NCBI GenBank assembly: GCA_044356325.1
Contig: JBIKWJ010000004.1
Span: 402 to 64,401 of the forward strand
DNA from: Minisyncoccia bacterium
Lineage (GTDB): Bacteria; Patescibacteriota; Minisyncoccia; SW-4-49-11
Length of the DNA stretch: 64,000 nucleotides
Direction of reading: 5' to 3'
Shown: piece by piece, positions 16,883 through 37,181 of the stretch
Position numbering within the stretch: position 1 is the first letter of the stretch
Layout: the number at the start of each line of letters is the position of its first letter
Notes under the pieces: generated by a model
What the model saw: the letters and a program-made list of their open reading frames with translations, nothing else
Database searches by the model: none
What the model was told of the DNA's origin: nothing
Translations under genes and position numbers: made by a program

Positions 16883-17278
16883 TTATCTATTCAAATAGGT
16901 TATACTCAATTGCAATATAGTCGCAAAGGAAACCCAGAGTAAATAAGGTATACTTGCATAAGTCACCCAGCGTAAATACGGCCAAATAGCAATCATCGCC
17001 CAGATGAGAGTAATCAATAATAGGATAATATCCAGAGAAGCTAATACATTATTCCTGAGCCCAAATTGCAATGGTGCAAAGGCAGCATTGAATACTAAAT
17101 TGAGTATAAAAGGTAAAGCTACTATCCATGGAATTTTCCCTATAGCCGCTTGATAGAATACCGTACCGAAACTGGCAAATATGATCAAATATAATATTGA
17201 CCATACCGATCCAAATAAATAGGATGGAGGAGCCCAGAAGGGTTTGATCAAATTCTCATACCAATTATAGGTGTTCAT
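16883..17278 (-). CDS. TspO/MBR-family tryptophan-rich membrane protein, short
   Basis: N-terminus WYENLIKPFWAPPSYLFGSVWSILY matches the TspO consensus (L.KP.W.PP..F..VW..LY). It has 4-5 TM helices. Confidence 0.6.
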   Translation of the reverse strand: MNTYNWYENLIKPFWAPPSYLFGSVWSILYLIIFASFGTVFYQAAIGKIPWIVALPFILNLVFNAAFAPLQFGLRNNVLASLDIILLLITLIWAMIAIWPYLRWVTYASIPYLLWVSFATILQLSITYLNR

Positions 17279-17424
17279 ATTTTTTATATTATATAGCTTA
17301 TTATAGCATAGAAAACTACTAAAGAGATATTGACATTATACTACTATATAGTACTATATAGTAGTATATTCTTACACTAAACCTAGTTAGGAATTGCACA
17401 TTCCCAACCCTACACGGAGGAACC

Positions 17425-18411
17425 ATGTCTATTCCAACCCCAATTTCTATCGCAAAAAATATATTCAGGTATGTTAAGGATAACCCAAATTTAGCTCTCA
17501 ATAACCAAGAAGAAGATATTCCTGATATCTGGACCTTTGATACAAAACACACGCCTATATCGACCTTAATGGACACTGGAGGTTATGGAATATTCACAGA
17601 AGTCTTTGACCGAACCAATATTATTCCCACAAGGTGGGTCAATTTTTCTCGACAATTCTACACTCCAGAAGCAAAACTATTAATAGCATTAGAACATGCC
17701 TGTGAAAACTCATCATGGCTAACATGGACCCCTGAGTTAATGCGTGATGACTTTGTGCTAAATGGCCACTGGTTTACCAAAAAACAACAACATGCAACCT
17801 ATGCTCATATTATCAAGCTCTTACGTCAAGGTCAATGTAATAATATTCAAATAGTACCTCCAACCAAGAGTTATAGAGATGCTCCTAATGCGTTTGGTGT
17901 GCAATTAAATGATGATGTGGTAGTTGATTTCCCTAGCGACTATGGGACACTGGTTCTGATGCGAAAAGAGCTGTATTACAGGATTACGTATACTGACAGA
18001 GATATTCCCCGGAACATACATGAATATCCATCTGATATCAAACCAAGATGTCAGATGATTGGTCGTACAAAGCAATTTGAAGGTAGAGAATTCAGAGGTA
18101 GAGAAGGGTCTTTGCTTAAAACATTATACCAATTACTGCCAGCCTTAAAAGCGCAAGATATAATCTATGTCCTATCAGAAGTGAATAGGGGTAAGACAAG
18201 ACCAAGATTTATTGGGCACATGAATGTCACAGCTCTGAATAAATCCCACGGGACATTAACAGGAGCGGTCCACTTAGATCAGATGTATATGACCTCCCGC
18301 AACTGCAGAGGCCTATCCGAGGAGGAGACTGATTCGTTGAGGAGAAGTAGTGGATCTTGGGAATCTTATTACTCACAAACTAAGGATGTTTGGGAAATAA
18401 TACAAACCTAG
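17425..18411 (+). CDS. Hypothetical protein with atypical composition
   Basis: 328-aa ORF followed by a rho-independent terminator. Confidence 0.5.
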   Translation: MSIPTPISIAKNIFRYVKDNPNLALNNQEEDIPDIWTFDTKHTPISTLMDTGGYGIFTEVFDRTNIIPTRWVNFSRQFYTPEAKLLIALEHACENSSWLTWTPELMRDDFVLNGHWFTKKQQHATYAHIIKLLRQGQCNNIQIVPPTKSYRDAPNAFGVQLNDDVVVDFPSDYGTLVLMRKELYYRITYTDRDIPRNIHEYPSDIKPRCQMIGRTKQFEGREFRGREGSLLKTLYQLLPALKAQDIIYVLSEVNRGKTRPRFIGHMNVTALNKSHGTLTGAVHLDQMYMTSRNCRGLSEEETDSLRRSSGSWESYYSQTKDVWEIIQT

Positions 18412-18433
18412 TCTCATCAGTTTTAATACCTCC

Positions 18434-18470
18434 GGCACCCAGAGACAAAATCAATGGGTGCTTTTTTATT
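18434..18470 (+). terminator. Rho-independent terminator
   Basis: gcaccc-(15-nt loop)-gggtgc followed by TTTTTTATTTT. Confidence 0.55.
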
Positions 18471-18574
18471 TTAAAGATAGTTTTTGAGTATATTCAAAAC
18501 TACTCCCTACTATGATTTGACGATCAATCTTTTACTATTTGATTATACATTATCTTTAAGTTCATAAAATCTAT

Positions 18575-18964
18575 TTACCCTACCCTCGTACACAATTCCA
18601 CCAAGAATCCATTGATATCGCGGACATAGCCAACTATTTGACCCCAAGGTTTTTGAGCTGGTTCTTTGACTACCATTGCTCCTGCTTCAATAGCTTGTTT
18701 GAAGGTGCTATCAATATCATCAGTTACAAAGGTAATTTCAAAAGCTGGTGGTATTATGGATAAATCAGATTTATTGATCGCAATCCCATTATATTCAGCT
18801 ACGCTATAATCTGCGAATGCTAATGTAGTTCCTCCCGTTTCTAGCTCAGCATAATCTTTTTCAGGAGTTATGAGTTTTTGGCTAAATCCAAATGCTTTGA
18901 TATAAAAATCTATTGTCTCCTCAACATTGTCAACATATAAAATGGTATAGCTATAAGTTATCAT
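18575..18964 (-). CDS. VOC / glyoxalase-bleomycin-resistance family protein
   Basis: 129 aa with the beta-alpha-beta-beta-beta module pattern ILYVDNVEETIDFYIKAFGF. Confidence 0.7.
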   Translation of the reverse strand: MITYSYTILYVDNVEETIDFYIKAFGFSQKLITPEKDYAELETGGTTLAFADYSVAEYNGIAINKSDLSIIPPAFEITFVTDDIDSTFKQAIEAGAMVVKEPAQKPWGQIVGYVRDINGFLVELCTRVG

Positions 18965-19012
18965 AGAACATTCTCTTTAGTGTATATTTCTATTATAGCA
19001 TAAACAGAGAAT

Positions 19013-19498
19013 TTATACTTTTTGCAAGAATAATTCAATATCTTCCTTGATATCCATAGGACTTGTCGTAGGAGCATATCGTTTAATCGTAAGTCCATCT
19101 GATGAGACCAAAAATTTGGTAAAATTCCACTTTATGGCATCACCCAAAAGACCAGCATGAGCATGCTCTTTGAGATAACTGAATACTGGATGAGTATTCT
19201 CTCCATTTACATCAATTTTCTCTGAAAGTAAAAAGGATACCCCATAATTGATCTGACATACATTTACTACGGTTTCATTGCTCTCAGGTTCTTGCCCAGC
19301 AAATTGATTACAAGGAAAACCAATCACTATCAAACCTTTATCTTTATACTCTTGATGTAGTTTCTCTAAATCAACAAATTGAGGAGCTAAACCACATTTA
19401 GTAGCGGTATTGACGAGTAATAAGACTTTACCCTGAAATTGTTGCATAGAAACGGTATTCCCCGCAGTATCGTTAAAGGAGAGATCATAGAATGACAT
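19013..19498 (-). CDS. gpx: Glutathione peroxidase
   Basis: Motifs LLVNTATKCGLAPQ, IGFPCNQFAGQEP and KWNFTKFLV. Confidence 0.9.
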   Translation of the reverse strand: MSFYDLSFNDTAGNTVSMQQFQGKVLLLVNTATKCGLAPQFVDLEKLHQEYKDKGLIVIGFPCNQFAGQEPESNETVVNVCQINYGVSFLLSEKIDVNGENTHPVFSYLKEHAHAGLLGDAIKWNFTKFLVSSDGLTIKRYAPTTSPMDIKEDIELFLQKV

Positions 19499-19625
19499 AG
19501 TATTGAGTTTAGATATTATGATTGTTTATCACTCCTTCTAGTATACTCTTATTTTAATTGGAATGGAAATTATTTTATGTCGCATTTTCAGGCTTGCCGC
19601 CGCTTATTACAAATGAGAAATCAAT

Positions 19626-20309
19626 CTATTCCGCTTCACCTTTAGAATCTTTGAAAGAGAGTCTATCTGCCAATTCCGAAGTTTCAGCATAAAGCTTCAT
19701 TTTCAAATTGAATGGATGTCCATGCATGGCAATCAAATTCATATTGTCAGCAACACTCACACTTTCTCGGGTTGGCTTTGGTAAACTAAAGTCAGGCTCC
19801 TTAGGCTCCTCCACAACTATTCCTAGCTTATACAACTCATTTAGCCAGAAATATCTAACATTTGTCAATAATGTATAAATATTTATTTCAGTACCATCGT
19901 TAAGAGTGGCGTAGAGCCCCTTTGTTGCAACATAATATACACCTTCTTCATCTTCATAAGCCGTAAGTACCAAATATTCTTCTATCTGACTAGCGCTGCT
20001 AATCAATGCATTTTTCCTATCCAACTTACTATGCTTAGAACAATCTGCAATATCGCGAACAAAGCTAAACTGAGAAAAAATTACAAGAATATACTTCTCA
20101 AGATACTCTTTAGGGGTTCTAAACTCCTCATTGATCTCTTTTACATTATGGTAGAGATGCTCATAAGTATGATAAAAAGCCACAGCACAGTTAATCGCTA
20201 ATCTGATATTAATACTCAACCCAAACTCCTTTTTATCAAAGACCTCCTTGAATGATCTATACTCCATTAGAGGACCCTCAACAAAGTATGTTTTTATATC
20301 ACTGTACAT
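19626..20309 (-). CDS. Hypothetical protein
   Basis: 227-aa ORF next to the tRNA-Ser locus. Confidence 0.45.
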   Translation of the reverse strand: MYSDIKTYFVEGPLMEYRSFKEVFDKKEFGLSINIRLAINCAVAFYHTYEHLYHNVKEINEEFRTPKEYLEKYILVIFSQFSFVRDIADCSKHSKLDRKNALISSASQIEEYLVLTAYEDEEGVYYVATKGLYATLNDGTEINIYTLLTNVRYFWLNELYKLGIVVEEPKEPDFSLPKPTRESVSVADNMNLIAMHGHPFNLKMKLYAETSELADRLSFKDSKGEAE

Positions 20310-20492
20310 AATTCATCCCGTTTACAGAGTATAATCTAAATTTTTCAAGCTTGAGACATAGGTATCAGCCAACTTTCAAATTATCAAAAATCCGACTAAA
20401 TATCAACAATCTATACATGTATTATATACTTTTCACTCTGTTCACGCTAGTGTGTATACCAATTAATTACGAAGTTTCAAAGACTATATAAG

Positions 20493-20516
20493 GGAGAGTA
20501 AGAGATTACGAACTCG
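20493..20516 (-). repeat. 24-nt near-identical copy of the tRNA-Ser 3' end (acceptor plus T-arm), a tRNA fragment scar
   Basis: ggagagtaagagattAcgaactc matches ggagagtaagagatt-cgaactc at the 3' end of the intact tRNA (20671-20693). No complementary 5' acceptor strand is present, so it is not a tRNA. Confidence 0.6.
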
Positions 20517-20669
20517 TCGCAAATGGGATTTGCTCTTTGAAACCCCTCGGTTTCAATACTTCCGCCACAGGAAACTTCCGTTTCCCGACCCCTTCCCTAG
20601 TTCGAATTTCTCTTTACTAACTTATGGAAATTAAAAAATAGGAGTATACCCCTATTTTTTAGATTATTG

Positions 20670-20756
20670 CGGAGAGTAAGAGATTCGAACTCTTGATACC
20701 TTTCGGTATACACGCTTTCCAAGCGTGCGCACTAGACCAACTATGCGAACTCTCCA
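20670..20756 (-). tRNA. tRNA-Ser (anticodon GGA)
   Basis: The reverse complement folds as a cloverleaf. Acceptor stem is GGAGAGT/ACTCTCC. The D-arm has conserved GG. Anticodon stem CACGC/GCGTG carries loop TTGGAAA. There is a long variable arm (ATACC-GAAA-GGTAT) and a T-arm AAGAG-TTCGAAT-CTCTT. Discriminator is G; CCA is not encoded. Confidence 0.85.
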
Positions 20757-20773
20757 TTATCTTGATTATTTTA

Positions 20774-20800
20774 TCAGATATTTACTGTATTGACTAGAGT
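20774..20800 (+). repeat. 27-bp perfect direct repeat, copy 1 (tcagatatttactgtattgactagagt)
   Basis: Identical to 23278-23304. It lies 18 bp from the tRNA-Ser 5' end and contains a TTGACT -35-like hexamer. Confidence 0.8.
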
Positions 20801-20863
20801 AGAGATTAAATAATTATACTATTGTAAAATTAAGTTAGTTAAAAAGTTATCTAGAATTAATAT

Positions 20864-21583
20864 CTAAATTTTAATAAGTTTCAACAACAAATATGAAGGG
20901 AAATTAGTCTCATCCTTCCACTTTTCTGGATATTCTGATATATCTTTTTGAGACGGTTTAGTTTCAATCACCTTATCAATCTTAAAGCCTGCTTTTATAA
21001 TCTCATTAAAATAAAAGCTAAGTGGATGGGTATAAGTTTTTGTTGAAAAATTATTATTATATATATCTTGTAGAGAGATTGTGACTTTCTTACTATTCCA
21101 ATAATGTATTTTATCATAGTGAAATTTTATCCAATCACTATTTGGTTTTTTAATAAACATCAAAGGATGTGGAATTGCTATTATAAAAATACCTTTATCT
21201 CTCAAAATTGAATATGTCATTTGTAGACTTTTAATAATATCTTTTTTACTTAAATGTTGTAAAACAATAATTGAAATAATTACATCAAACTTTTGCTTAA
21301 TCTTTTTATACTCAATTACAGAATCAATAAAAAATTCAATATTAGGAGACTTAATTTTACATAACTTAATAAGTTCATCTGAAATATCAACTCCGATAAC
21401 ATTACCTTCTTTTTTAGCAATTGATCTTGATAAATACCCCTCACCACATCCTGCATCTAAAACATCTTTTCCTTTTACATTACCAATAAGCTTTAGAACT
21501 AATGGTCTTACTAAATAATCACTATGAATAGTTTTTTTATTTCTATCCCAAAAACTAGCTTTTTTCTTATATTCATTATTCAT
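20864..21583 (-). CDS. Class I SAM-dependent methyltransferase
   Basis: Motif I VLDAGCGEGYLS and the overall Rossmann pattern. Confidence 0.7.
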   Translation of the reverse strand: MNNEYKKKASFWDRNKKTIHSDYLVRPLVLKLIGNVKGKDVLDAGCGEGYLSRSIAKKEGNVIGVDISDELIKLCKIKSPNIEFFIDSVIEYKKIKQKFDVIISIIVLQHLSKKDIIKSLQMTYSILRDKGIFIIAIPHPLMFIKKPNSDWIKFHYDKIHYWNSKKVTISLQDIYNNNFSTKTYTHPLSFYFNEIIKAGFKIDKVIETKPSQKDISEYPEKWKDETNFPSYLLLKLIKI

Positions 21584-21695
21584 AATAATAAATGATTTAT
21601 ACCATAATTATACCATATTCTGTGGAAGAGGTAAATTTATATCCTAAAAAAAAGGGTAGTCATCGTACGACTACCCTAATAATCTCCACAACAGT

Positions 21696-22094
21696 TCAAA
21701 GTTGACAGAAAAGTCTAGCTCTAGCTAGAGCGTTAGACTCTTCATTGATACCACCAAAAAATGTGGTGGAGCAAACTGTTATGGGTGTTTTTGAAAAGTT
21801 CACATATACTCCAGCATTCCCTGCTGGAGCAGAACCTCCTATATCTCCATAACCTTGCCCATATACACCATAATGTATTTTATTTTTATTATCTCCTCCA
21901 ACTGGAATGAGTGCTTCCGTAAAGAAGGAACCTCTTTCACCCTCGGTGAGGGTGACCTCACTGAGGATACTTGGCCCTGGTGGCTTGGCCTGAGCTGCTG
22001 AGGGAGCAGCTAACACAAAACACCCAAGAAAAATAGCACAAAGTTGAGAACGAAACATGTCCAAGGTTAGCTGAGTACCCCTATTTTGTAGCAT
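21696..22094 (-). CDS. Small secreted hypothetical protein with atypical composition
   Basis: N-terminal signal peptide LCAIFLGCFVLAAPSAAQA. The mature part is Gly-rich. Confidence 0.45.
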   Translation of the reverse strand: MLQNRGTQLTLDMFRSQLCAIFLGCFVLAAPSAAQAKPPGPSILSEVTLTEGERGSFFTEALIPVGGDNKNKIHYGVYGQGYGDIGGSAPAGNAGVYVNFSKTPITVCSTTFFGGINEESNALARARLFCQL

Positions 22095-22124
22095 ATATAT
22101 ATTTATTTGTCAAATGTATATATC

Positions 22125-22817
22125 TTAAATTAAATCTAACTTTCTCTTAGCAGTATTATAAAATTCTTCTACTATTTCATATCCATAAAATATTCCATTT
22201 CTCTTTAACACTTCAACTCCTAAATTAGCTGTACCCATAAAAGGATCTAGAACTTTCATTTCTTTTATAAAATATTTTCCCAAAATAAAATCTATTATTG
22301 CTTTAGGTTGAGGACAAGGATGTTCAGGTACAGATATGTAGTTAATATATAGAATATCACCAGAATATTGCTTTACTTTTGATTTACTAAAGACTAATAT
22401 TTGATGACAATTAGAATGGGAATACTCTTTAGTTATATAATTTTCATCAAATCCATGATCTGGTAATTCAAAACCATTATCTGAATTAACAAAATTAATA
22501 TGTCTAGTTTCTAAAAATAAATTACAATCTAATACAGCAAATTTCTGTACTAAACCAGCAAGTTGAATATATTTATTATCAGTAAAAATACTGTCTGATA
22601 TTTCTATTATTAATTTTCCATTTTTATTTAATTTTTTACTAATTTCTAAAATAACATTTTTTATAAAATAAATATATTTATCTAAATCTAAATCATCATC
22701 AAAATTTCCATAATAAGTTTTTATATTATAAGGTGGACTAAAAATAGCCAAGTCTATTGACTCTTCATCTATTTCTGACATAGATTCTGAGGAATGATTA
22801 AAAATTTTATATTTCAT
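22125..22817 (-). CDS. DNA methyltransferase, N6-adenine/N4-cytosine type (beta-class motif order), apparently orphan
   Basis: Motif IV IFSPPYN is near the N-terminus and motif I DPFMGTANLG near the C-terminus. No restriction endonuclease candidate is adjacent. Confidence 0.7.
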   Translation of the reverse strand: MKYKIFNHSSESMSEIDEESIDLAIFSPPYNIKTYYGNFDDDLDLDKYIYFIKNVILEISKKLNKNGKLIIEISDSIFTDNKYIQLAGLVQKFAVLDCNLFLETRHINFVNSDNGFELPDHGFDENYITKEYSHSNCHQILVFSKSKVKQYSGDILYINYISVPEHPCPQPKAIIDFILGKYFIKEMKVLDPFMGTANLGVEVLKRNGIFYGYEIVEEFYNTAKRKLDLI

Positions 22818-23277
22818 AAATTTAGTATACTCCTAAAACCATTGTTATAATATAGCAAAATTATTTTTTAACACTTTATTATTATATCATATTTTTCATT
22901 GTGAATTATGAGTTGTGAATTATTGATTACATCCACTTTTCAATTAAGAAAATTATTTATGGATATAAGCTAGCACCTACATATATTTTATGAAGCATTC
23001 AATATCAATAACAAATCTTTTTCCCAATCAAAGGATGTCGTTTCCATATTTTGTAATTTTTCTACAGCTTTTAGGCATTTTGCATCTTTTTTGATAAATT
23101 TTTTCAATAATTCCACTATATCTACCATAAAATCTCCTACTGTTCCGTCTGAATCGTCTACTCCATTCATTAATTTTTTTTTCTAATCTCAGTAGTATTT
23201 TTACTAAAATTTTAGCTGTCTGCAAACTAACTGGCAATTTAGATATAACTAGTATCATTATCTACTCCTTTTATTAG

Positions 23278-23304
23278 TCAGATATTTACTGTATTGACTA
23301 GAGT
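23278..23304 (+). repeat. 27-bp perfect direct repeat, copy 2
   Basis: Identical to 20774-20800. Here it forms the -35 region of a good sigma70-like promoter. Confidence 0.8.
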
Positions 23305-23322
23305 TGTATATCAGTTTAATAT
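23294..23322 (+). promoter_or_regulatory. Sigma70-like promoter (TTGACT-17-TAATAT) upstream of the small membrane protein and RND transporter genes
   Basis: Hexamers with 17-nt spacing, 20 nt upstream of the ORF starting at 23344. Confidence 0.5.
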
Positions 23323-23343
23323 AGATTTATACTAAATCATTTT

Positions 23344-23601
23344 ATGAATATACAAGATATTGTTATTACTATTGCAACTATTATTCTTTCTGTATCCCTG
23401 ATCCCCCAAGTTATATTAGGATTTCAGACTAAAACTCAAGATATTACGTATATTACTTCTATATCTTCTCTTATCTCTTTATTATTTATGGCAGTTGCTT
23501 TTGCTTCTCTTGAACTTTGGTTATCTGCTATTATTACTGTACTCAATGCAATACCCTGGTTTATATTTATGATTCAAAAATATATTTATACAAAAAAATA
23601 A
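23344..23601 (+). CDS. Small membrane protein
   Basis: 85 aa with two hydrophobic helices. Confidence 0.4.
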   Translation: MNIQDIVITIATIILSVSLIPQVILGFQTKTQDITYITSISSLISLLFMAVAFASLELWLSAIITVLNAIPWFIFMIQKYIYTKK

Positions 23602-23707
23602 TATATTAAAAAAAGCTCCTCTTTTCATTTAGCAATCTATTATTTTGTTTGCGAGAAACCTATATATCGTATATACTGAATACAGTACTTATTAATCAAT
23701 TATCAAT

Positions 23708-26425
23708 ATGGATACATCCAATAAACCCGATGCATTAACAAAAATTGCTCTATTCTTCTTGAATAAATGGCGAATTACTGTTCTCTTATTAGTCGGTATT
23801 CTTGCAATTGGAACTGCAGCTTATACTACATTTTTAAAGCGTGAGGGGTTTCCTACTATTGAGGTTCCAGTTGCTCTGATTCAAACTCCTTATTTTGTCA
23901 ATGATAAAGGACTTGTAGATAAAGATGTCACCGAGCCAATTGAATCGGCTATCGGAAGTATACAAGAGATTAAAGCTATAACCTCTACCAGTGCTGATAA
24001 TTTTTCTAATATTACGGTTGAATTCAAAGAAGGTACAACTTCTAAGGATGGAGCAAAATTATTAGAAGATGCAGTGAATGGTGCTACCCTACCACAGGAT
24101 ATCAAACCTTCTTTTGTCACAATTAATGCCGCTTCTTTTGATGGAGAGAATGACCTTGTATTCAGTTTAATTGGTAATGGAAAATCTACTCAGGAATTGC
24201 AAGATAAGGCTACTTTTGTTGCAAAGGAAATAGATTCTGTGAATTCAGTTACTCGAACAAATGTCATTGATTTACAAGAAGTTCAAACGAATCCTATTAC
24301 AGGAGAATCTAATTTAGAGCAAATTAAATTTGGACGCTCAGCTCATCGCAATGATGACGATAAATTAGTATTCTCTGATGCTATCCTGATTGGAGCTGTA
24401 CGAGATACTTCTAAGGGAACCATTGAATTCTCACAGGCTATTCAAGACAAAGTTCAAAAGCTAAAAGATGCTGGAGATTTAGATGGATATGATGTGATAT
24501 TTGGTGGTGGAGATGCTTCTAATGCTCTTACTGCACAATTATCTTTACTCCAGGAAAGCGCTATATCTGGGCTTATCGCAGTTATGGTTATTATGATATT
24601 AATTGTTAACTGGAGAGCTTCTATTGTGATTGCGGTGTTTATCCCTGTCTCTATTGCACTTACTTCTTTAGGATTATATCTGATTGGATATTCTCTTAAT
24701 ACCCTGACTTTATTTGGACTGATTCTGGTGATTGGATTAATCGCCGATGATGCTATTCTTGTGATTGATGCTATTGATAATGCCCGTAAACAAGGTTATA
24801 AAGGGAAAAAGGCGGTAATTCATGCCATTAATACTGTTGGGCTGGCAGATATATCTGGAACTGTTACTACCATTCTAGCCTTTATTCCTATTGCTCTTGT
24901 ATCTGGTACTTTAGGAGAATTTATTAAGCTTATTCCTATTACCGTTATCTTGACTTTGGCTTTATCTCTGATAGTAAGTCTTACTCTGATTCCTTTCTTT
25001 GCAAACTTGGTATTACCTCATTATGAAGCTGAGACAGGAGTCAAGACGAAAAGAAAAGGTATTAGCAAAGTACTCTATAATGTTCTCTATTTTGTTCCTG
25101 GTATTATTGATTGGATTAATATTAAAGTGTATCAGTATACCAATTGGTATCTTAATAATATATGGCGTAGTACTATAATATTTGTTTTGACGATAGCACT
25201 TATTGGAGCAGGAATATTTACTGCAGGTAAACTCAAATTTGCTATTTTTGCTCCGGCTAAAGACACCAATGAGATTACAGTAACTTCTATATTAAAGGAT
25301 AATCGTGATTTACAGAAATCTATTGATACCACCAAAGAGGTTGAGAGAATTATCAAGGATACTAATGCTGAGTATATTGATGATATTACCTACTTTAATG
25401 CTGATGCATCTGGTGTATTAATGTATATTACTCTTACACCTCTTGGAGAGCGAGAGAAAACTTCAGCTACTATTGTATCTGAGATAAATGATAAGATTGC
25501 CGATAATGTAAAACTGAAAGATTTGAAAGTCAAAGCAGGTATAGCTGGAGCTGGTCCTCCAACTGATGATTATCAAATTACCTTCCAAGTATTCTCAGAC
25601 AATCAAAAAACTCTTGAAAATTCAACCAAAGAAATTCGAGACTTTACCAGAGATATCAAATTAGATGGTGGTGAAATCAAAGATGTCATTATCAATAATA
25701 TTGATACTATTACCCGAAAAGATGGTAGAAGATTTGCCTCTGTGCAAGTTGCTGTGTCTGACCCAGAGAATACCAATCTTGTACTTGAAGCTCAAACTGC
25801 TATTAAAGAAAAATTTGATACTGATGCATTTCGTTCTAAGTATGATTTATCCAAAGATGGAGTTGCCTTTGATCTAGGACAACAAGGAGAAAATCTCGAT
25901 TCCTTCCAATCTGCGATATTTGCTCTTATTGCGGCTATTATCATTATGTATGTACTCTTGGTATTGCAATTCAATTCCTTGAGCCAACCATTCCTCATCT
26001 TAATGGCTGTACCATTCTCATTCCCTGGATTATTCTTTGGACTTTATTTGACCAATAACCCATTAAGCTTCTTTGCCTTAATTGGTATTACGGGTCTTGT
26101 CGGTATTGTGGTTAATAATACTATTCTCTTACTTGATTACTCAAATGCCGTCTTAGCAGAAACGGGATCTATTCGGGAATCAATTTCTGGAGCAATCAAA
26201 TATCGTTTCCGAGCTTTGATTACTACTTCTCTCTCAACTATTGTTGGTATACTTCCTCTCGCTTTTGCTGACCCATTCTGGGAAGGACTTGCCTATGCAC
26301 TAGTATTCGGACTTACATCTAGTACCCTATTGGTAATATTTGCCTATCCGGTATTCTATGTAGCCTTGGCTCATACTCGACGATTTGTCTGGAGAAAAGT
26401 ATTCCGTAAAAAAGACTTTAATTAA
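23708..26425 (+). CDS. RND-superfamily transporter permease (AcrB/MmpL-like)
   Basis: 905 aa. It has 12 predicted TM helices in two bundles, each preceded by a large extracytoplasmic domain. The TM4 motif LIADDAILVIDAIDNARKQG resembles AcrB D407/D408. Confidence 0.75.
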   Translation: MDTSNKPDALTKIALFFLNKWRITVLLLVGILAIGTAAYTTFLKREGFPTIEVPVALIQTPYFVNDKGLVDKDVTEPIESAIGSIQEIKAITSTSADNFSNITVEFKEGTTSKDGAKLLEDAVNGATLPQDIKPSFVTINAASFDGENDLVFSLIGNGKSTQELQDKATFVAKEIDSVNSVTRTNVIDLQEVQTNPITGESNLEQIKFGRSAHRNDDDKLVFSDAILIGAVRDTSKGTIEFSQAIQDKVQKLKDAGDLDGYDVIFGGGDASNALTAQLSLLQESAISGLIAVMVIMILIVNWRASIVIAVFIPVSIALTSLGLYLIGYSLNTLTLFGLILVIGLIADDAILVIDAIDNARKQGYKGKKAVIHAINTVGLADISGTVTTILAFIPIALVSGTLGEFIKLIPITVILTLALSLIVSLTLIPFFANLVLPHYEAETGVKTKRKGISKVLYNVLYFVPGIIDWINIKVYQYTNWYLNNIWRSTIIFVLTIALIGAGIFTAGKLKFAIFAPAKDTNEITVTSILKDNRDLQKSIDTTKEVERIIKDTNAEYIDDITYFNADASGVLMYITLTPLGEREKTSATIVSEINDKIADNVKLKDLKVKAGIAGAGPPTDDYQITFQVFSDNQKTLENSTKEIRDFTRDIKLDGGEIKDVIINNIDTITRKDGRRFASVQVAVSDPENTNLVLEAQTAIKEKFDTDAFRSKYDLSKDGVAFDLGQQGENLDSFQSAIFALIAAIIIMYVLLVLQFNSLSQPFLILMAVPFSFPGLFFGLYLTNNPLSFFALIGITGLVGIVVNNTILLLDYSNAVLAETGSIRESISGAIKYRFRALITTSLSTIVGILPLAFADPFWEGLAYALVFGLTSSTLLVIFAYPVFYVALAHTRRFVWRKVFRKKDFN

Positions 26426-26434
26426 GTAAAAAAG

Positions 26435-26462
26435 AGGTAGCTCATTGAGCTACCTTTGGTTG
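26435..26462. terminator. Bidirectional rho-independent terminator between convergent genes
   Basis: Hairpin aggtagctc-att-gagctacct with TTGGTT on the plus side and a T6 run on the minus side. Confidence 0.5.
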
Positions 26463-26479
26463 GATTCGTGGAATTACCT

Positions 26480-26926
26480 CTATGTAAAAAATTTAATAGT
26501 TTTTCTTAATTTTTTTATATAAAAATCCTTTACTGGAGACCATAAAGTCATTAGAATCAAGAATATACTAAAGCCATATCCCAAACTCAAATATCTTTGT
26601 TCATATAGTATATTACTAAGTGACTCACTCCCCATTTTTGATGCCCATACTGAACTTATCCTCAACAGCACCGGCAAGCACAGGTATAAAGTATAAATAC
26701 AATGAATAATAAATGATTTTTTGGAGTAAGTGTCAAATTGATTGTTAAATCTGATACTCTGATTATTAAGCGACATAATACCTGCTTCTACCATAATCCA
26801 AACCCATTGTAAAATTAGAATTGGTGATAGGAAAAATCCCCATAAAAATGCTATATCACTCCACCCTGACAATAGGCAATAAACTGCACTAAATAAACTC
26901 CCGATAGACCAGTAAACAATGAGCAT
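26480..26926 (-). CDS. Hypothetical polytopic membrane protein
   Basis: 148 aa with four hydrophobic helices. Confidence 0.4.
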   Translation of the reverse strand: MLIVYWSIGSLFSAVYCLLSGWSDIAFLWGFFLSPILILQWVWIMVEAGIMSLNNQSIRFNNQFDTYSKKSFIIHCIYTLYLCLPVLLRISSVWASKMGSESLSNILYEQRYLSLGYGFSIFLILMTLWSPVKDFYIKKLRKTIKFFT

Positions 26927-27008
26927 TGTTCATTCCACCTACTTCGGGTGGGGTGAATAGGACCAACACTTTACAACATAAAATCTATACTTTTGTCAAT
27001 AATTCCAT

Positions 27009-28142
27009 TTATTTTTTAGATTTTTTCCAAAAAGTTTTATTCTGTATGTTTTCTGGAAGATAACTCTCAATATCATAAGCCTTATAATCTTTGCCATAGC
27101 CTAAATCTTTCATCAAATTAGTGGTAGCATTGCGAATATTCAATGGTATTGAGAGATTACCCGATTGTTTGACTTCCCTCTGAGCCTCTTTAATAGCATC
27201 ATATACTCTTCTATCTTTGGGGGCTTGAGCCAAATATACCACTCCATGCGCAAGATTAATAGAAGCCTCAGGAAGCCCCACTACTTCTACTGTTCGGAAT
27301 ACTTCATTGGCAATCACAAGTGCTGTGGGCAGAGCCATACCAATATCCTCACTCGCAAATATAATCATTCTACGTGCAATAAATTTAGGATCTTCTCCCC
27401 CTTCTAGCATACGGGCAAGATAATATAAAGCCGCATCTACTTGGCTGGCTCTCATACTTTTAATAAAGGCACTAATAACATCATAATGCTCCTCCCCTGC
27501 CCTATCATATCTAAGATTGGTATCTCTCAAGATAGCTTCAATATTCTCAATACTGATAGAATCCCCATACATAGACTTGGCCCTCTCATAAATTCCTAGA
27601 GCCTTACGGGCATCCCCATTGGCATATTGTGCAATATACTCACTTATAGTAGAATCCCCTAATCCCGCCTGAGCTAATATATTTTGTATTTCCTCTACAG
27701 TAAGGGCTATAAGCGTATAGATAATACAACGAGATTGTAGGGCGGCTATAATTTCAAAACTTGGATTCTCTGTAGTAGCTCCAATCAAAATCAGAGTTCC
27801 GTCTTCCACAAAAGGAAGTAAATATTCTTGTTGAGCTTTATTAAAACGATGTATCTCATCCAGGAATAAAATCTTTTGCTGTTCAGTATTATCTTTGATA
27901 ATTACTTCTATATCTTTTTTCCCTGCTCTTACTGCTGAGACTTCATATAATTTACCATCAATTGCATTACTATATATACGAGCTAGGGTAGTTTTACCCA
28001 CTCCAGGAGGACCCCACAAAATAAAGGATTGTGGCAATTGCTGTGTAATACACAGATAAAGAGGCTTACCCTCTCCTACAAGGTGTTTTTGACCTATAAA
28101 GGTATTCAGATTGATGGGTCTCACGCTATCTGCAAGTGGCAT
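27009..28142 (-). CDS. rarA: Replication-associated recombination protein A (AAA+ ATPase)
   Basis: Walker A WGPPGVGKTTLARIY, Walker B ILFLDEIHRFNKAQQ and sensor LIGATTENPSFEI. Confidence 0.9.
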   Translation of the reverse strand: MPLADSVRPINLNTFIGQKHLVGEGKPLYLCITQQLPQSFILWGPPGVGKTTLARIYSNAIDGKLYEVSAVRAGKKDIEVIIKDNTEQQKILFLDEIHRFNKAQQEYLLPFVEDGTLILIGATTENPSFEIIAALQSRCIIYTLIALTVEEIQNILAQAGLGDSTISEYIAQYANGDARKALGIYERAKSMYGDSISIENIEAILRDTNLRYDRAGEEHYDVISAFIKSMRASQVDAALYYLARMLEGGEDPKFIARRMIIFASEDIGMALPTALVIANEVFRTVEVVGLPEASINLAHGVVYLAQAPKDRRVYDAIKEAQREVKQSGNLSIPLNIRNATTNLMKDLGYGKDYKAYDIESYLPENIQNKTFWKKSKK

Positions 28143-28190
28143 AAGGGATAATTATATTAATACGTATAGTATAACATACACTGTATTATT

Positions 28191-28314
28191 GTCCTCCTTT
28201 GGAGGAGGTACCCGCAGGGTGGAGGTGGATAATCAGAAAATTCTATTTTATATTAAACTTATATCTCTTTCCACCCCGTCAGGCAAAGCCTACCACCCCT
28301 CAAGAGGGGAATTT
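28191..28314. repeat. GC-rich repeat element copy between rarA and the fusA terminator
   Basis: gtcctcctttggaggaggtacccgcagggtggaggtggataa ... ccaccccgtcaggc...cccctcaagaggggaatttt. Confidence 0.7.
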
Positions 28315-28370
28315 TAAAACAAGACACAATTTCAAGGGAGGACATTTAAATCTGTTCCCTACCTACCAAA

Positions 28371-28400
28371 AAACCTGAGTTTTTATTCTCAGGTTTTTTA
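28371..28400. terminator. Rho-independent terminator downstream of fusA
   Basis: aaacctgag-tttttatt-ctcaggttt, flanked by an A-run and a T-run. Confidence 0.7.
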
Positions 28401-28419
28401 GGTTTATAGATTGACACTA

Positions 28420-30540
28420 TTATCTCGCTGTTCTCTTGGCAATAATATCTTGTTGCACATTGCTAGGAACTGGCTGATAATCATTGAATTCCATCACTGC
28501 ATTTCCTCGTCCTTGTGTCATAGAACGAAGTGTAGTTACATATCCAAACATTGAAGATAGCGGAACTTTTGCTGACACTACTTTGAGTCCACCAGTTCTA
28601 TCATTCATTTCTTCAATAAGTCCTCGTCGTGAATTTAAATCTCCTACTACGTCTCCCATATATTGCTCTGGAATAGTTACTTCCACTGCCATAATTGGCT
28701 CGAGAATAATTGGATTTGCTTTTTTTACAGCTGCTGAAAGAGCCATAGAACCTGCAATTTTGAAAGCTGATTCTGAAGAGTCAACATCATGATATGACCC
28801 GTCATATACTGTTGCTTTGATATTAATAAGTGGGTATCCTGCAATAACACCACGATCTATAGATTCTTTTACTCCCTTTTCAATGGCAGGCACATATTCA
28901 GATGGAATCGATCCTCCCTTTAATTCATTTCCAAAAATATAATGTTGTGGTTTCTTTGGGTCAATTTCAGTTGTTTCAGGATCAAATGACTCAACTCGAA
29001 GATATACATCTCCATATTGTCCTTTTCCTCCTGATTGTTTGATATATTTTCCTTGTGCTTCAGCAGAACTTTGAATAGTTTCTTTATAGGATACTTGTGG
29101 TTGTCCTACATTTACTTCTACGCCAAATTCTCGCTTCATACGATCCACAATAATATCAAGATGAAGCTCTCCCATGCCTGCAATAAGGGTGTCTCCTGTT
29201 ACTTCATCAGAACTTACTTTAAGAGTTGGATCTTCGTCAGATAATTTGTGTAGAGCTAAACTCATTTTTTCTTGATCAGCCTTAGTCTTTGGCTCAAGTT
29301 TAATCTGAATAACAGGTTCTGGGATAACAATTTTCTCCAAGATAATTGGATCTTTCTCATCACAAAGAGTATCTCCTGTAGTAGTATTCTTAAGTCCTAC
29401 AATAGCCCCAATTTCTCCTGCAGATAACTCCTCTACTTCTGTTCGAGAATTAGCATGCATCAAAACAAGTCGAGAAATTCGCTCTTTCTCCCCCTTGGTT
29501 GAGTTATACACATAACTTCCACTCTTAAGAGTTCCAGAATAGACTCGGAAGAATACTAATTGTCCAATATAAGGATCAGTTGCAATTTTGAAAGCAAGTC
29601 CTGCAAATGGTTCATTTTTATCTGCTTTTCGCTCTAATTCTTTTTCTTCATCATCTACATCAGTTCCTTTGGCCGCATCAATATCCAGTGGAGATGGAAG
29701 ATAATCAATAACAGCATCAAGCAATTTTCTTACAATAGCAGTTCGAGAATCTCCTCCGAGTACTGGGAAAATTTTTGATTCAAGAGTTCCTCGTCGAATA
29801 GCATATTTCATTTCTTCAGTTGAGAGCACACCATCATTCAAGAATAATTCAATTAATCTATCATCTACTTCTGAGACTTTCTCCATCAATACTTGTCGAT
29901 ATTCTTCTACTTGCTCGAGCATATCTGCAGGAATTTCAGCCTCAATAATTTCAGTCATACCAGCATCATCAGCATAGACATAGGCTTTATTCTCTACCAA
30001 ATCTACAAGACCTCGTATACCTTGCTCAAAACCAATTGGCAAAGCAATTACAACGGCATCTTTAGATAGTCGCTCCTGAATAGATGCAAATGATTTATAA
30101 AAATCTCCTCCAGTTTGATTGATTTTGTTTACAAAACAAATTCGAGGCACATTATATCTATCAGCTTGTCGCCAAACTGTCTCAGATTGTGGCTCTACCC
30201 CAGATTTTCCATCGAATACGGTAACCGCACCATCGAGCACACGAAGAGATCGCTCTACCTCCATAGTAAAATCAACATGGCCAGGAGTATCAATAATATT
30301 AATTCTATGATCTTTCCAAAAACAAGTAGTAGCAGCTGAGGTGATAGTAATCCCTCGCTCTCGCTCTTGTGCCATCCAATCCATTTCAGCCGCACCATCA
30401 TGTACTTCACCAATTTTATGCTTTAATCCAGTGAAATACAAAATTCGCTCCGTAGTAGTAGTTTTACCTGCATCAATATGCGCAATAATTCCAATATTAC
30501 GAACATCATCAAGAGGAATATCTTTGTGATCTTTGGCCAT
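28420..30540 (-). CDS. fusA: Elongation factor G
   Basis: G-domain [23 protein letters not shown] and NKMD. Full length is 706 aa. Confidence 0.95.
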
Positions 30541-33918: not shown

Positions 33919-34833
33919 TCAAACCAAGGCTGAGATAATATATTGTGTGATGAGGAAAGCCCCCATAATTATCATAAGTCCCACCACTGCATTCCTAATT
34001 CCATCTAAAGCCTGACCTACTTCTCCTGGATTAGAACTTGTCATATATTTAAAACCTGACATTACCAGTATTGCAACGGTAATAGCACCTAATATTCCTA
34101 ATAAAGCATTAATAATACCCGCTATAAGATCTGGAATACTATTGAACTTAATAGGATTAGTGAATCCTACACTTTGAGGCGCTGATGAGTCAGTAGTTCC
34201 TCCCCCACCAGTAGATCCAGGAGTAGCAGTACTTGCAGTACAAGTTGGTTTACCACCTTGAGTAGCACAAACTTGCCCAGAGGTACAAGTCTTTCCATCA
34301 CATTTACCATTAACACTTGCATCTTTTGTACAAGTAGGCTTACCTCCCTGAGTGGCACATACTTGCCCAGAAGTACAGGTCTTTCCATCACAAGTATCAG
34401 CCGTTGAACCTCCTGAGGTTGATCCACCAGGACTACCTGGTGGTTTTTTACTAATGTCACATGGTCCTGTTTTAGGCCCTGGAGCTCTACATACACCTAA
34501 TTCACCACCAGATTTACAAGCATCTCCAATTATAACACAATCTTCCCACCCATTCTTCTCAGAATCAAGTGTTTTACAAGTCAATGGATTATTTTTTGCT
34601 ACACTATCTGCATTTGTCCTATCACAAAAACCACTTTCAGTCTGCGTTGCAGTTCCTGCAGATTGCCCTCTTCCTCCAGTAGTTACTTCTCTTTGATAGG
34701 TACAATCATCTCCATTTTTTTTACCAGAACATGCGGTATTTTGTGGAGAACTCTGAGCAAAGCTATTCTGAGGGATAATTAATCCTATACCTAATAAAAG
34801 TGAGAATAAAATATATTTCATACTAATTTGCAT
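33919..34833 (-). CDS. Secreted Cys-rich protein with two 30-aa tandem repeats and a C-terminal VirB2/TrbC-like pilin hairpin (array member 7)
   Basis: Signal peptide present. Repeat CDGKTCTSGQVCATQGGKPTCT appears twice. C-terminus LIAGIINALLGILGAITVAILVMSGFKYMTSSNPGEVGQALDGIRNAVVGLMIIMGAFLITQYI is the shared paralogous hairpin. Confidence 0.6.
   Translation of the reverse strand: MQISMKYILFSLLLGIGLIIPQNSFAQSSPQNTACSGKKNGDDCTYQREVTTGGRGQSAGTATQTESGFCDRTNADSVAKNNPLTCKTLDSEKNGWEDCVIIGDACKSGGELGVCRAPGPKTGPCDISKKPPGSPGGSTSGGSTADTCDGKTCTSGQVCATQGGKPTCTKDASVNGKCDGKTCTSGQVCATQGGKPTCTASTATPGSTGGGGTTDSSAPQSVGFTNPIKFNSIPDLIAGIINALLGILGAITVAILVMSGFKYMTSSNPGEVGQALDGIRNAVVGLMIIMGAFLITQYIISALV
34238..34395. 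repeat. Tandem in-frame DNA repeat, 2 x ~90 bp (63-bp near-identical cores)
   Basis: acaagt(t/a)gg(t/c)ttacc(a/t)cc(t/c)tgagt(a/g)gcaca(a/t)acttgcccaga(g/a)gtaca(a/g)gtctttccatcaca appears at 34240 and 34330. Confidence 0.8.
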
Positions 34834-35239
34834 TTAATGGTATATTGATATCATCTACTGTGTCATCTGCTGGGAATACAAATCCTAATACGGTATTGGA
34901 TACGACAAAGGCAAAGAATATAATAATCAGTCCTATGATTGCATTTACCATTCTTTTTTGAGCTGATTCAGCCTGCTTCTCATCCCCTCCTGCTGTTGCA
35001 TATTCAAATCCTGCATATAGGAATATAATAAATATTATAATTCCTATAAATCCTAATATCCACCTTATAATAATCGACACTGTCTCTATCAGGCTTGGTC
35101 CCTCAGCTATTCCGGTATTAATTGGGATTGTCCCTGGATCAGGGAGAGTGGCATCAGGGGCTCTTTGAGCTAGAGATATATTAGAACTTAATACAAATCC
35201 CCCCATCAATAAAGCTATTATAATCAATAAGACTCTCAT
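34823..35239 (-). CDS. VirB2/TrbC-like pilin-family protein (array member 6)
   Basis: Signal peptide, then IIRWILGFIGIIIFIIFLYAGFEYATAGGDEKQAESAQKRMVNAIIGLIIIFFAFVVSNTVLGFVF. This is two hydrophobic helices joined by a short Gly-rich loop, as in T4SS pilins. Confidence 0.55.
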   Translation of the reverse strand: MRVLLIIIALLMGGFVLSSNISLAQRAPDATLPDPGTIPINTGIAEGPSLIETVSIIIRWILGFIGIIIFIIFLYAGFEYATAGGDEKQAESAQKRMVNAIIGLIIIFFAFVVSNTVLGFVFPADDTVDDINIPLNAN

Positions 35240-35299
35240 ATCTATTTTACTATTCTATATATTACAAGTATATCAAGTATTCTATTATCTGACAAGAAG

Positions 35300-35560
35300 A
35301 TGTATAAGATGAGGAAATTGTAGACACTGAGTTCTATTCAAAGTGTAAGCTTGTATTTTATCCACCCCGTCTCCTCCCATACAAAAGTATGAGAGGAGAC
35401 ACCCCTCAAGAGGGGAATTTTTCGTACAGTACATTTTTATATATTCCCCTCTTGAGGGGTGCCGTCGCTAGACGGTGGGGTGGAATACGGGCGACTGTAA
35501 GGTCACCCCTACACAACTCACACTTTATCTAGATATATGTCTCATCTTCTGAAGAAGATG
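35300..35560. repeat. GC-rich palindromic repeat element (MITE/REP-like) with AT-rich terminal motifs, inside the pilin array
   Basis: Near-perfect ~130-bp palindrome: ccaccccgtctcctcc...cccctcaagaggggaatttttcgtacagtac | atttt...ttcccctcttgaggggtg...gacggtggggtgg. The same modules occur at 53911-54272 in opposite orientation. Confidence 0.75.
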
Positions 35561-35643
35561 AGACAAAGGATATAGTCTATCCCCTAAATAATAAAAAGGG
35601 ATATGATAATCCCTTTTTATTATTTGTATATTAGATACATTAT

Positions 35644-36030
35644 TTAGACATTTCCTTGGAATACGAATGACAATACTGCATTTGAAGCAACAAAGGCAAA
35701 GAATATAATAATTAATCCAATTACTGCATTAATCATTCGAGATGTTGCACTTTTTGCTTTTCCTTCATCTCCTCCTGCTGTTGCATATTCAAATCCTGCA
35801 AATAAGAAGATAATAAATATAACAATTCCAATAAATCCTAATGCCCATCGAATAACGAGAGAGATGGTTCCTGTCAAACTAGTAGATTGAAAAACTCCTG
35901 TTCCAGTTGGAATAACTCCTATTCCTCTATTATCTGGGGTAGGTGATACAGCTCCAGCTAAAGCAGGTGCTAATACTAATAAAGGTAATAATACTCTTGT
36001 CACTATTGATTTTATTCTGGAGTTATTCAT
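35644..36030 (-). CDS. VirB2/TrbC-like pilin-family protein (array member 5)
   Basis: Start trimmed to MNNSRIKSIVTRVLLPLLVLAPALAGA (signal peptide). Hairpin is IRWALGFIGIVIFIIFLFAGFEYATAGGDEGKAKSATSRMINAVIGLIIIFFAFVASNAVLSFVF. Confidence 0.55.
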   Translation of the reverse strand: MNNSRIKSIVTRVLLPLLVLAPALAGAVSPTPDNRGIGVIPTGTGVFQSTSLTGTISLVIRWALGFIGIVIFIIFLFAGFEYATAGGDEGKAKSATSRMINAVIGLIIIFFAFVASNAVLSFVFQGNV

Positions 36031-36129
36031 AAGAATATCTATAATTATTAAATAATATGTCCTATAAGTATATATTATCATATAATATATACTTATGCAA
36101 GTAATAGCATTGTGGATAAGTCTATTATA

Positions 36130-36468
36130 TTATAAGCCAAAGACAAATCCTAAGACCGCATTAGACAAAACAAATGCTAACCCTACAATAAACACTCCTA
36201 TTACTGCTGCTGCAATTCTACTTATGGCTTCTTCGGTTTTTTTAGGATCTCCCCCTGCTGTTGCATATTGGAATCCAGAAAATAGTATAAGGACAAATAA
36301 TATTATCCCTATTAACCCGAGGCTCCATCTTACAATAGCAGATACAAAGGTAAATATATCTCCTTGTTCTGTTACCCCAGTACCAGTAGGAATACCCAAA
36401 ACAGGTGGTACAGATTCCTGAGCTTTGGCTGTAGCTATTATAAGATTTGCTATAAGTTTTTCTAACAT
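36130..36468 (-). CDS. VirB2/TrbC-like pilin-family protein (array member 4)
   Basis: VRWSLGLIGIILFVLILFSGFQYATAGGDPKKTEEAISRIAAAVIGVFIVGLAFVLSNAVLGFVFGL. Confidence 0.55.
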   Translation of the reverse strand: MLEKLIANLIIATAKAQESVPPVLGIPTGTGVTEQGDIFTFVSAIVRWSLGLIGIILFVLILFSGFQYATAGGDPKKTEEAISRIAAAVIGVFIVGLAFVLSNAVLGFVFGL

Positions 36469-36479
36469 ATATAAGATTA

Positions 36480-37151: not shown

Positions 37152-37181
37152 AATATCTATATTTAATTATTTTTAATTATA

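Follow-up and report, generated by a model that had tools for sequence, protein, structure and literature searches.

Beside a serine tRNA gene of a Minisyncoccia bacterium, a perfect 27-bp direct repeat brackets about 2.5 kb of DNA, which raises the question of whether the repeats are the attachment sites of a mobile element or the trace of some other event. The locus lies in a 64,000-nt stretch of contig JBIKWJ010000004.1 (assembly GCA_044356325.1), which was analyzed as a whole and is called the window here. A preliminary description of this DNA had proposed a small integrated or mobilised cassette with att-like repeats or, alternatively, a duplicated promoter, and had pointed to a possible restriction-modification or defence remnant. 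Comparison with related loci favors the promoter. The repeats are best explained, with a probability that we put at about 0.7, as the core of the tRNA-Ser promoter duplicated by one illegitimate recombination joint, and they are probably scars of ordinary genome flux and not the attachment sites of a new mobile element.

The sequence TCAGATATTTACTGTATTGACTAGAGT is found twice on the plus strand, as copy 1 at 20774-20800 and copy 2 at 23278-23304. No further match was present in the window at up to three mismatches, and the chance expectation was 0.00 (100 shuffles), confirming that the 2.5-kb segment is bracketed by exactly two perfect copies. The same count eliminates the 27-mer as a common promoter motif, and outside the window only the orthologous locus was found to carry it. 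Copy 1 stands 18 nt from the 5' end of tRNA-Ser(GGA) (20669-20755, minus strand; ARAGORN, Rfam tRNA 55.3 bits), so that the segment adjoins the tRNA as reported, although on the upstream side and not at the tRNA 3' end. The 2477 nt between the repeats (20801-23277, the islet proper) have a GC content of 0.271 and carry every gene on the minus strand. The same repeat and islet structure was assembled independently in at least six samples and is therefore no assembly artefact; exact-protein matches gave the source contig as Ga0453946_0000058 (JGI 3300042364) and led to the other assemblies. Looser similarity does surround the copies, as had been noted (86% over 49 nt between 20755-20800 and 23256-23304), but what lies to the left of copy 2 is the remnant of a gene fragment described below and not extended att homology. 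The stretch AGATAATG, seen beside both copies, was rejected as extended homology; at copy 2 it belongs to the coding sequence of a SWIM zinc-finger gene.

Related loci were recovered by scanning species-representative genomes with the RND/AcrB-family transporter encoded downstream (23708-26425, plus strand; Pfam ACR_tran, 9e-95). Six were returned, and the window was thereby placed in Candidatus Paceibacterota/Parcubacteria of the candidate phyla radiation (CPR); the identifiers L002-L044 used below denote comparison loci or contigs from related or homologue-bearing genomes. Orthologues of the transporter occur in all related loci and tRNA-Ser holds the orthologous position in L011-L016 and L042, the two forming the conserved right and left anchors of the locus. 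Far from the segment being syntenic in all relatives, three metagenome-assembled genomes (MAGs; L012, L013 and L014) lack precisely the islet and keep one repeat: tRNA-Ser is followed by 18 nt, a single 27-mer, a gene for an 85-aa protein and the RND gene. The left flank of copy 1 and the right flank of copy 2 in the window are the native flanks of these empty sites. This makes the segment a genuine presence/absence islet with duplicated native sequence at its borders, copy 1 being in the native position and copy 2 the duplicate. Two identical 27-mers are found only in the window type. Other lineages carry variants that are shuffled among copies and lineages, as expected for recombination and gene conversion.

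Read on the minus strand, the 27-mer consists of ACTC, TAGTCA and 17 nt ending in TGA, and copy 1 continues into TAAAAT. A promoter scan, together with conservation, identified this arrangement (TAGTCA-N17-TAAAAT with a TG-extended -10; 20768-20796, minus strand) as the predicted promoter of tRNA-Ser. Its -10 hexamer at 20768-20773 lies outside the repeat, and the promoter ends 12 nt before the mature tRNA. On the plus strand, copy 2 supplies the -35 of a predicted promoter for the 85-aa gene (TTGACT-N17-TAATAT, 23294-23322), 21 nt before the ATG. In both cases -35 and -10 elements are properly placed before the gene, with the 16-18 nt spacing of sigma-70-type promoters. The tRNA-Ser -35 (TTGACTAG on the plus strand) is invariant in all lineages compared and TGnTAAA(A/C)T is likewise kept in every one of them, the drifted L011 still having TGnTAAAAT and L015 the equivalent TGCTAAACT; spacer positions 11-14 are variable. 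The right edge of the 27-mer coincides with the limit beyond which the tRNA promoter stops constraining the sequence, and the same nucleotide at this edge is followed by four different sequences in different genomes. We infer that the 27-mer is the -35 hexamer and 17-nt spacer of the conserved tRNA-Ser promoter and, by the TTGACT on its other strand, the -35 of the 85-aa/RND promoter, that is, the core of a predicted bidirectional promoter. The duplicated-promoter alternative in the preliminary description thereby proves essentially right. The plus-strand face of copy 1 holds another putative promoter (20790-20817, TTGACT-16-AATTAT), aimed antisense into the 3' end of the first islet gene.

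A probable origin of the second copy can be read from L042, which was reached via one of five homologue clusters of a small secreted-type protein of the islet. L042, a more diverged relative, has a fuller islet at the same locus, with ~92% nucleotide identity to the window in the islet and ~92% in the flanks. Its full-length SWIM gene has upstream of it a gene fragment comprising RND codons 1 to ~34 along with an RND-type promoter (RND'; 22/28 amino acids identical to RND, blastn E 2e-12). RND' runs directly into copy 2, beyond which come the 85-aa gene, a Cys-rich gene of 86 aa and RND at full length. The sequence GAATTACAGTCCTTTTATTAA beside copy 2 of L042 is the end of the 34-codon fragment, and the window retains its last ~10 nt (CTTTTATTAG). 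The right joint, between RND codon ~34 and the 27-mer, falls at the patch TTATTA(G/A)TC(A/G)G.TATT and shows no extended homology. With a truncated RND gene and its promoter directly adjoining copy 2, the duplication would trace to one illegitimate junction, and since RND codon ~34 is joined to position -19 of the tRNA promoter, two cassettes would stand in tandem with the promoter core necessarily duplicated. The junctions are of the kind left by homology-facilitated illegitimate recombination (HFIR), with the conserved tRNA-Ser region on the left and short microhomology on the right. The region upstream of RND' is 78% identical to that upstream of the RND gene in L015, as against 45-55% for the window, L011 and L016; the RND' promoter is thus nearer to L015 than to the resident type, favoring imported DNA from a diverged relative. 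Copy 2 was also considered as a minus-strand promoter for the islet, but this is unsupported: CTAATA, derived from RND', stands at the -10 position, and no site was detected there by the scan.

Relative to L042, a deletion of 649 nt bounded by two AAGGA/TCCTT microhomologies has removed from the window codons 1-155 of the SWIM gene, the intergenic region and RND' except for ~10 nt. The deletion joint (TCCTT) and the last ~10 nt of RND', abutting copy 2, form TCCTTTTATTAG at 23266-23277 (plus strand). What remains of the SWIM gene are its C-terminal 89 codons (22988-23258, minus strand), visible in the window as two overlapping small open reading frames (ORFs) that match residues 158-246 of the 246-aa L042 protein in two frames with 90-95% identity (tblastn). 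An AAAGGAG ribosome-binding site with an ATG start at 23258 had been considered here and is actually former SWIM coding sequence (E-G-V-D). The 89-codon remnant is whole in L020, which has 8 T at the position where a 9-T run in the window (23174-23182) shifts the frame; this run could reflect simple decay or a slippage-prone tract. A further loss affects L002, L009 and L010, three independent assemblies in which an in-frame deletion of 930 nt (window 22187-23116), with TCCA(T/C) as the microhomology, has taken out the DNA methyltransferase gene, leaving a 67-aa fusion ORF that ends in the methyltransferase C-terminus (L002 6047-6250). By these comparisons the islet of the window is a methyltransferase/SWIM module undergoing decay.

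The interval between tRNA-Ser and RND was found in at least five states, close relatives having the same flanks and differing gene content. It may contain nothing (L011), a Cys-rich 79/86-aa gene (L016), the 85-aa gene (L012-L014) or a four-gene cassette encoding the SWIM protein, the DNA methyltransferase, the secreted-type protein and a class I methyltransferase. Judged from the loci compared, this interval is a hypervariable, flexible genomic slot of this Paceibacteria lineage. The Cys-rich gene is an optional occupant (L016 2028-2267; L042 4513-4773), and L011 has neither it nor the 85-aa gene. The latter (23344-23601, plus strand; GC 0.267) lies outside the repeats and encodes a PQ-loop/SemiSWEET-like membrane protein with 132 representative homologues. 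Pfam PQ-loop was matched by 11/41 (best E 4.5e-7), and the match to the solved SemiSWEET 4rng was weak (E 0.57). The gene exists as allele A in the window and allele B in L012 (7626-7883), L014 and L042 (4846-5103), which share 64-66% amino acid identity; the alleles diverge though the adjacent RND genes are ~90-95% identical in nucleotide sequence. Allele A never occurred apart from the islet: of the 14 contigs with this allele that were read (10 places shown), every one contains the islet or breaks inside it. L042 pairs the islet with allele B.

Between strains, the identical region is larger than the islet. A block of 3.1 kb (20590-23687) is ~99.7% identical in L002 and L020, with about 8-10 differing sites, and its flanks are 86-95% identical (GPx 87-88%, RND 94-95%, EF-G 86-88%). 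It extends past copy 2 through the 85-aa gene, and against L020 its left edge falls inside copy 1. The identity block being wider than the repeat-bounded unit, it is to be ascribed to recent homologous recombination in the flanks and not to excision or integration at the repeats. This indicates that the islet spreads by homologous recombination in conserved flanks. The window flanks from 17000 to 30540 are themselves a mosaic, with EF-G 94% identical to the empty-site genomes as compared with 86-88% to L002 and L020, and RND showing the opposite pattern; this mosaic indicates that homologous recombination is frequent among these Paceibacteria lineages.

Taken together, these data point to the following history. 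The duplication would have arisen once, when a four-gene cassette arrived from a more distant relative together with the neighboring RND promoter and RND codons 1 to ~34. The imported DNA would have been joined illegitimately, at microhomology, to position -19 of the resident tRNA-Ser promoter, its other end recombining homologously in the conserved tRNA region, in an event of the HFIR or unequal-crossover type. Two cassettes would have ended up in tandem, each keeping a copy of the promoter core. The window would represent a later, decaying derivative, in which the 649-nt deletion was followed by the homopolymer frameshift; sister strains would have lost the DNA methyltransferase through the 930-nt deletion, and the locus would now travel between strains as the 3.1-kb block. 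HFIR is an established process (PMC3240628), and natural competence has been demonstrated in the CPR Saccharibacteria (PMC10187176). Pilus and pilin genes are present in the window, where six genes of the T4SS_pilin family are clustered at 33919-39375. The repeat, the empty sites, the RND' junction, the deletions and the identity block are seen directly in the sequences; from them and from the promoter matches we infer promoter activity, the direction of DNA transfer and natural transformation as its route.

Several points weigh against this history. The parental haplotype that it predicts (tRNA-Ser, promoter, four-gene cassette and full RND without the 85-aa gene) was not found in the collections searched, and RND' resembles L015/L016 to a moderate degree (78-81%). 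The same structure would also result if a circle from an illegitimate excision were integrated at the 27-mer by a trans-acting recombinase or RecA, or from Campbell-type integration of an aberrantly excised circle. Islet and flanks being equally diverged from L042, the islet must be old at this locus, and its low GC content is no sign of recent arrival. As for the promoters, the evidence for their activity consists of consensus matches and conservation, and the promoter scan overall was not enriched (29 sites vs 23.8 +/- 4.6 in shuffles). Finally, the polarity could be reversed, the empty sites being secondary deletions between the repeats.

This last point leads to the alternative that survives best, namely that the islet is ancestral and that L012-L014 became empty by RecA-mediated deletion, the repeats having served as substrates. 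Recombination between direct repeats leaves exactly one copy, as seen in these MAGs, and the equal divergence of islet and flanks (~92%) agrees with an old islet. L042 moreover shares allele B of the 85-aa gene and an identical copy 2 with the empty L013 and L014. Yet 27 bp is near the minimum length for efficient homologous recombination, no deletion product on the allele A background was seen among the 14 contigs read (10 places shown), and the origin of the repeats is left unexplained, an illegitimate joint still being needed. We regard an ancestral islet as possible but clearly the less probable order of events.

One could also consider a tandem duplication within the genome, from the promoter core to RND codon ~34, followed by homologous exchange that replaced the cargo in one copy. 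Such a duplication would likewise create one novel joint only, between RND codon 34 and the 27-mer as in L042, and replacement of cassettes via flank homology is evident at this locus. It requires the extra replacement step, however, and the resemblance of RND', and especially of its promoter, to L015 (78%, against 45-55% for the resident type) speaks for import unless the duplication is very old. This makes a purely internal origin of the repeat pair unlikely.

The attachment-site proposal in the preliminary description holds in part. A variable and horizontally exchanged islet is supported, but the att-like role of the repeats is not, given the absence of a recombinase gene from the islet and the window, the location in a promoter and the RND' junction. 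In its strongest form, the repeats would be attL and attR of an integrase-less integrative cassette whose 27-bp attB lies in the tRNA-Ser promoter and whose recombinase is encoded elsewhere or by a helper element. The repeats are perfect and enclose a segment that relatives lack exactly, retaining a single copy; the segment adjoins a tRNA and is atypical in GC content; the native-like copy 1 and the copy 2 variants of L002 and L020 can be read as attB x attP hybrids; and the 3' side of the same tRNA has partial-tRNA repeats typical of integrase activity. The flank pattern fits as well, each copy having one native and one element flank, except that the repeat sits in a promoter instead of a tRNA 3' end and that the element side of copy 2 in L042 is a truncated RND gene with its promoter, unusual content for an element with an attP site. 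No Phage_integrase, Resolvase, Recombinase or transposase was found by Pfam in the islet ORFs or the larger ORFs of the window, or among its called genes. Read directly, the 27-mer is without the dyad symmetry of recombinase core sites. A degenerate 27-mer scan of JGI metagenome contigs gave one further contig, with the same locus, among those scanned; a viral-contig scan with the 27-mer gave no match, and no second location or circular junction for the islet was seen among the contigs scanned, although rare excision is conceivable. The 17 contigs read for the class I methyltransferase agree, every one shown having the same context. With near-identity between strains continuing beyond copy 2 through the 85-aa gene, and all the allele A contigs read retaining the islet or breaking inside it, attachment sites are an improbable explanation.

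Still more doubtful is a dedicated, host-encoded system in which the tRNA-Ser promoter core would serve as the site of integrase-independent, integron-like cassette stacking in the CPR through some trans-acting enzyme. If it were true, methyltransferase/defence, PQ-loop and Cys-rich cassettes would be inserted, stacked and removed at the 27-mer, and identical copies would mark recent activity. A Xer/dif-type module (IMEX-like) using host XerC/D is effectively refuted by the sequence, since, although the repeat is near dif in length (27 against 28 bp) and no element-encoded integrase is present, there are no partially palindromic XerC/XerD-like arms (TCAGATATTTA against the reverse complement of ACTCTAGTCAA gives 3/11 matches), every relative keeps the 27-mer as a tRNA promoter, the locus shows no GC-skew switch and the RND' junction is left unexplained.

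The 3' side of tRNA-Ser has the look of a classical integration hotspot, distinct from the repeat pair. A partial tRNA-Ser-like 3' half (GAGTTCGTAATCTCTTACTCTCC) lies at 20493-20545 on the minus strand, 178 nt downstream of the real tRNA, and consists of a variable-arm-like hairpin, a T arm and an acceptor strand; conserved counterparts are present in L013, L014, L015 and L042. The adjoining region with a 227-aa ORF (19520-20589) is absent from L002 and L020, and L042 has a second occurrence of the tRNA 3' end/terminator sequence ~2.5 kb downstream, where it flanks additional genes. The remnant region (20493-20600) was rejected as a structured RNA, since it matched nothing in Rfam and had a folding z-score of -0.97. 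A bacterial RNase P class A RNA was found in the window at 61389-61713 (139.6 bits).

The gene content of the islet agrees with what had been claimed for it, namely a class I S-adenosylmethionine (SAM)-dependent methyltransferase, a secreted-type ORF of atypical GC content, a beta-class DNA methyltransferase and small ORFs. Compared with the 53 other ORFs of the window (GC 0.355 +/- 0.031), both methyltransferase genes are AT-rich (class I 0.249, z = -3.5; DNA methyltransferase 0.227, z = -4.2), and the secreted-type ORF has a GC content of 0.436. The latter (21696-22094, minus strand) encodes 132 aa, or 120 aa from a Met at 22058, with an N-terminus judged signal-peptide-like by eye. Its product belongs to no known family and has only five homologue clusters, all within this islet family; the AlphaFold model was unusable (predicted local distance difference test score, pLDDT, 40). 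A hairpin resembling an intrinsic terminator (11-bp stem and T run; 21653-21677, minus strand) stands 3' of this ORF and is predicted to separate two transcription units. Past the hairpin, a promoter-like site (21607-21635, minus strand; promoter scan) precedes the class I methyltransferase gene (20864-21583, minus strand; 239 aa; Pfam Methyltransf_25, 5e-17).

The class I methyltransferase is identical in amino acid sequence to that of L042 over 238 of the 239 aligned residues (100%), only the last residue differing. Just three close homologue clusters were found, two of them in a 56-60% GC genome beside tRNA-Ala. On these matches, the gene appears to have moved horizontally more than once between highly dissimilar genomes, here too beside a tRNA. 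The nearest homologues outside the islet, in L037 (6914-7894), L039 and L040, share 72-77% amino acid and 76% nucleotide identity; there the gene (GC 31-37%) follows aroK and a DHQ-synthase-like gene and is convergent with tRNA-Ala(CGC).

The DNA methyltransferase (22125-22817, minus strand; 230 aa) is an orphan of the beta class. Pfam N6_N4_Mtase is matched at 7e-19 (69.1 bits, cut-off 26.7) and PADLOC MTase_II is called; motif IV (SPPY, residues 27-30) precedes motif I (DPFMGTANLG, residues 187-196), which is the beta-class order. The family comprises ~60 solitary homologues of ~230 aa from Parcubacteria and Woesearchaeota, often beside tRNA genes. In other Parcubacteria, L032 (5754-5933) and L034 (5715-5932), a homologue is found just downstream of tRNA-Glu/tRNA-Arg, and a 25-63-nt duplicate of the tRNA-Arg 3' end follows 155 nt further, an att-like partial-tRNA repeat. 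No cognate restriction endonuclease was found beside the gene, its neighbors being the SWIM remnant and the small secreted-type protein, and no nuclease families were found among the neighbors by Pfam or PADLOC. The adjacent nuclease of a type II restriction-modification system is therefore missing, and the homologous methyltransferases elsewhere are solitary too. The full 246-aa SWIM protein of L042 matches Pfam SWIM (9e-5) and the PADLOC candidate PDC-S62 (1.3e-15). The suggestion of a restriction-modification or defence remnant is upheld to the extent that a truncated SWIM/PDC-S62-like gene accompanies the orphan methyltransferase, possibly as the remnant of a defence-related module, and fails for want of a cognate nuclease. 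A phage origin of the cargo found no support: viral-contig scans gave no match to either methyltransferase, and in tblastn against GenBank phages the SWIM protein had no match and the methyltransferases matched at only ~27% identity. A three-gene neighborhood of DNA methyltransferase, small membrane protein and class I methyltransferase, suggested by L029, was rejected because the neighbors are not homologous.

Two alleles of the DNA methyltransferase are in circulation, with SPPY in the window, L020 and L044 and DPPW in L042 (6227-6934) and L043 (575-1282). Their ends are near-identical (22/24 N-terminal and 45/45 C-terminal residues) and their centers only 28% identical. The exchanged center, ~150-160 residues encoded at about 22273-22722, contains the catalytic motif and the presumed target-recognition region. 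This pattern suggests an allele swap by recombination in the conserved ends, which could possibly switch the m4C/m6A specificity.

Among known systems, HFIR products (PMC3240628) provide the closest parallel: one end lies in a homologous anchor, here the tRNA-Ser region, the other at a microhomology of a few bases, here RND codon ~34 and the promoter, and no element-encoded recombinase is involved. Our case differs from these products in being deduced from comparative sequence in an uncultivated CPR lineage, in the duplication of a promoter core and a gene 5' end, and in a donor that would be a related genome with a different allele of the same locus. The islet also resembles the additive and replacement flexible genomic islands of streamlined aquatic bacteria (PMC10872708), one of which is likewise flanked by tRNA-Ser(gga). 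It shares with them a fixed hotspot beside a tRNA, alternative cassettes between conserved flanks, homologous exchange and methyltransferase or defence-like cargo. The additive islands, however, have tRNA 3' end repeats made by integrases, whereas here the repeat is a tRNA promoter and no mobile-element gene is present, and at 2.5 kb the scale is very small. With tycheposons and classical genomic islands (10.1101/2020.12.28.424599) the islet has in common direct repeats around cargo beside a tRNA and presence/absence polymorphism. Those elements, in contrast, carry integrases and ~40-nt partial-tRNA att sites; here no integrase is present, the repeat lies on the upstream side of the tRNA, and a truncated host gene directly adjoins copy 2. 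The islet does not show the defining features of integrase-driven islands or tycheposons. Its DNA methyltransferase is like the solitary beta-class N4C/N6A enzymes and decayed type II restriction-modification systems in its N6_N4_Mtase domain, beta motif order, lack of a cognate nuclease and accompanying SWIM/PDC-S62-like remnant, and unlike the typical solitary enzymes in having two central alleles between identical termini.

What the locus illustrates are cassettes in a slot between a tRNA and a transporter gene, recombination sweeps of 3 kb, deletions at microhomologies and the swapping of methyltransferase core alleles. None of these processes is new in kind, and as a flexible genomic islet the locus is an ordinary one. 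A duplicated promoter fragment that forms a direct repeat next to a tRNA can pass for a pair of att sites, which calls for caution with the heuristics used to find genomic islands. For the uncultivated Paceibacteria of the CPR, the islet offers a well-resolved natural example of variation in the gene content of tiny genomes that lack mobile-element machinery at the site.

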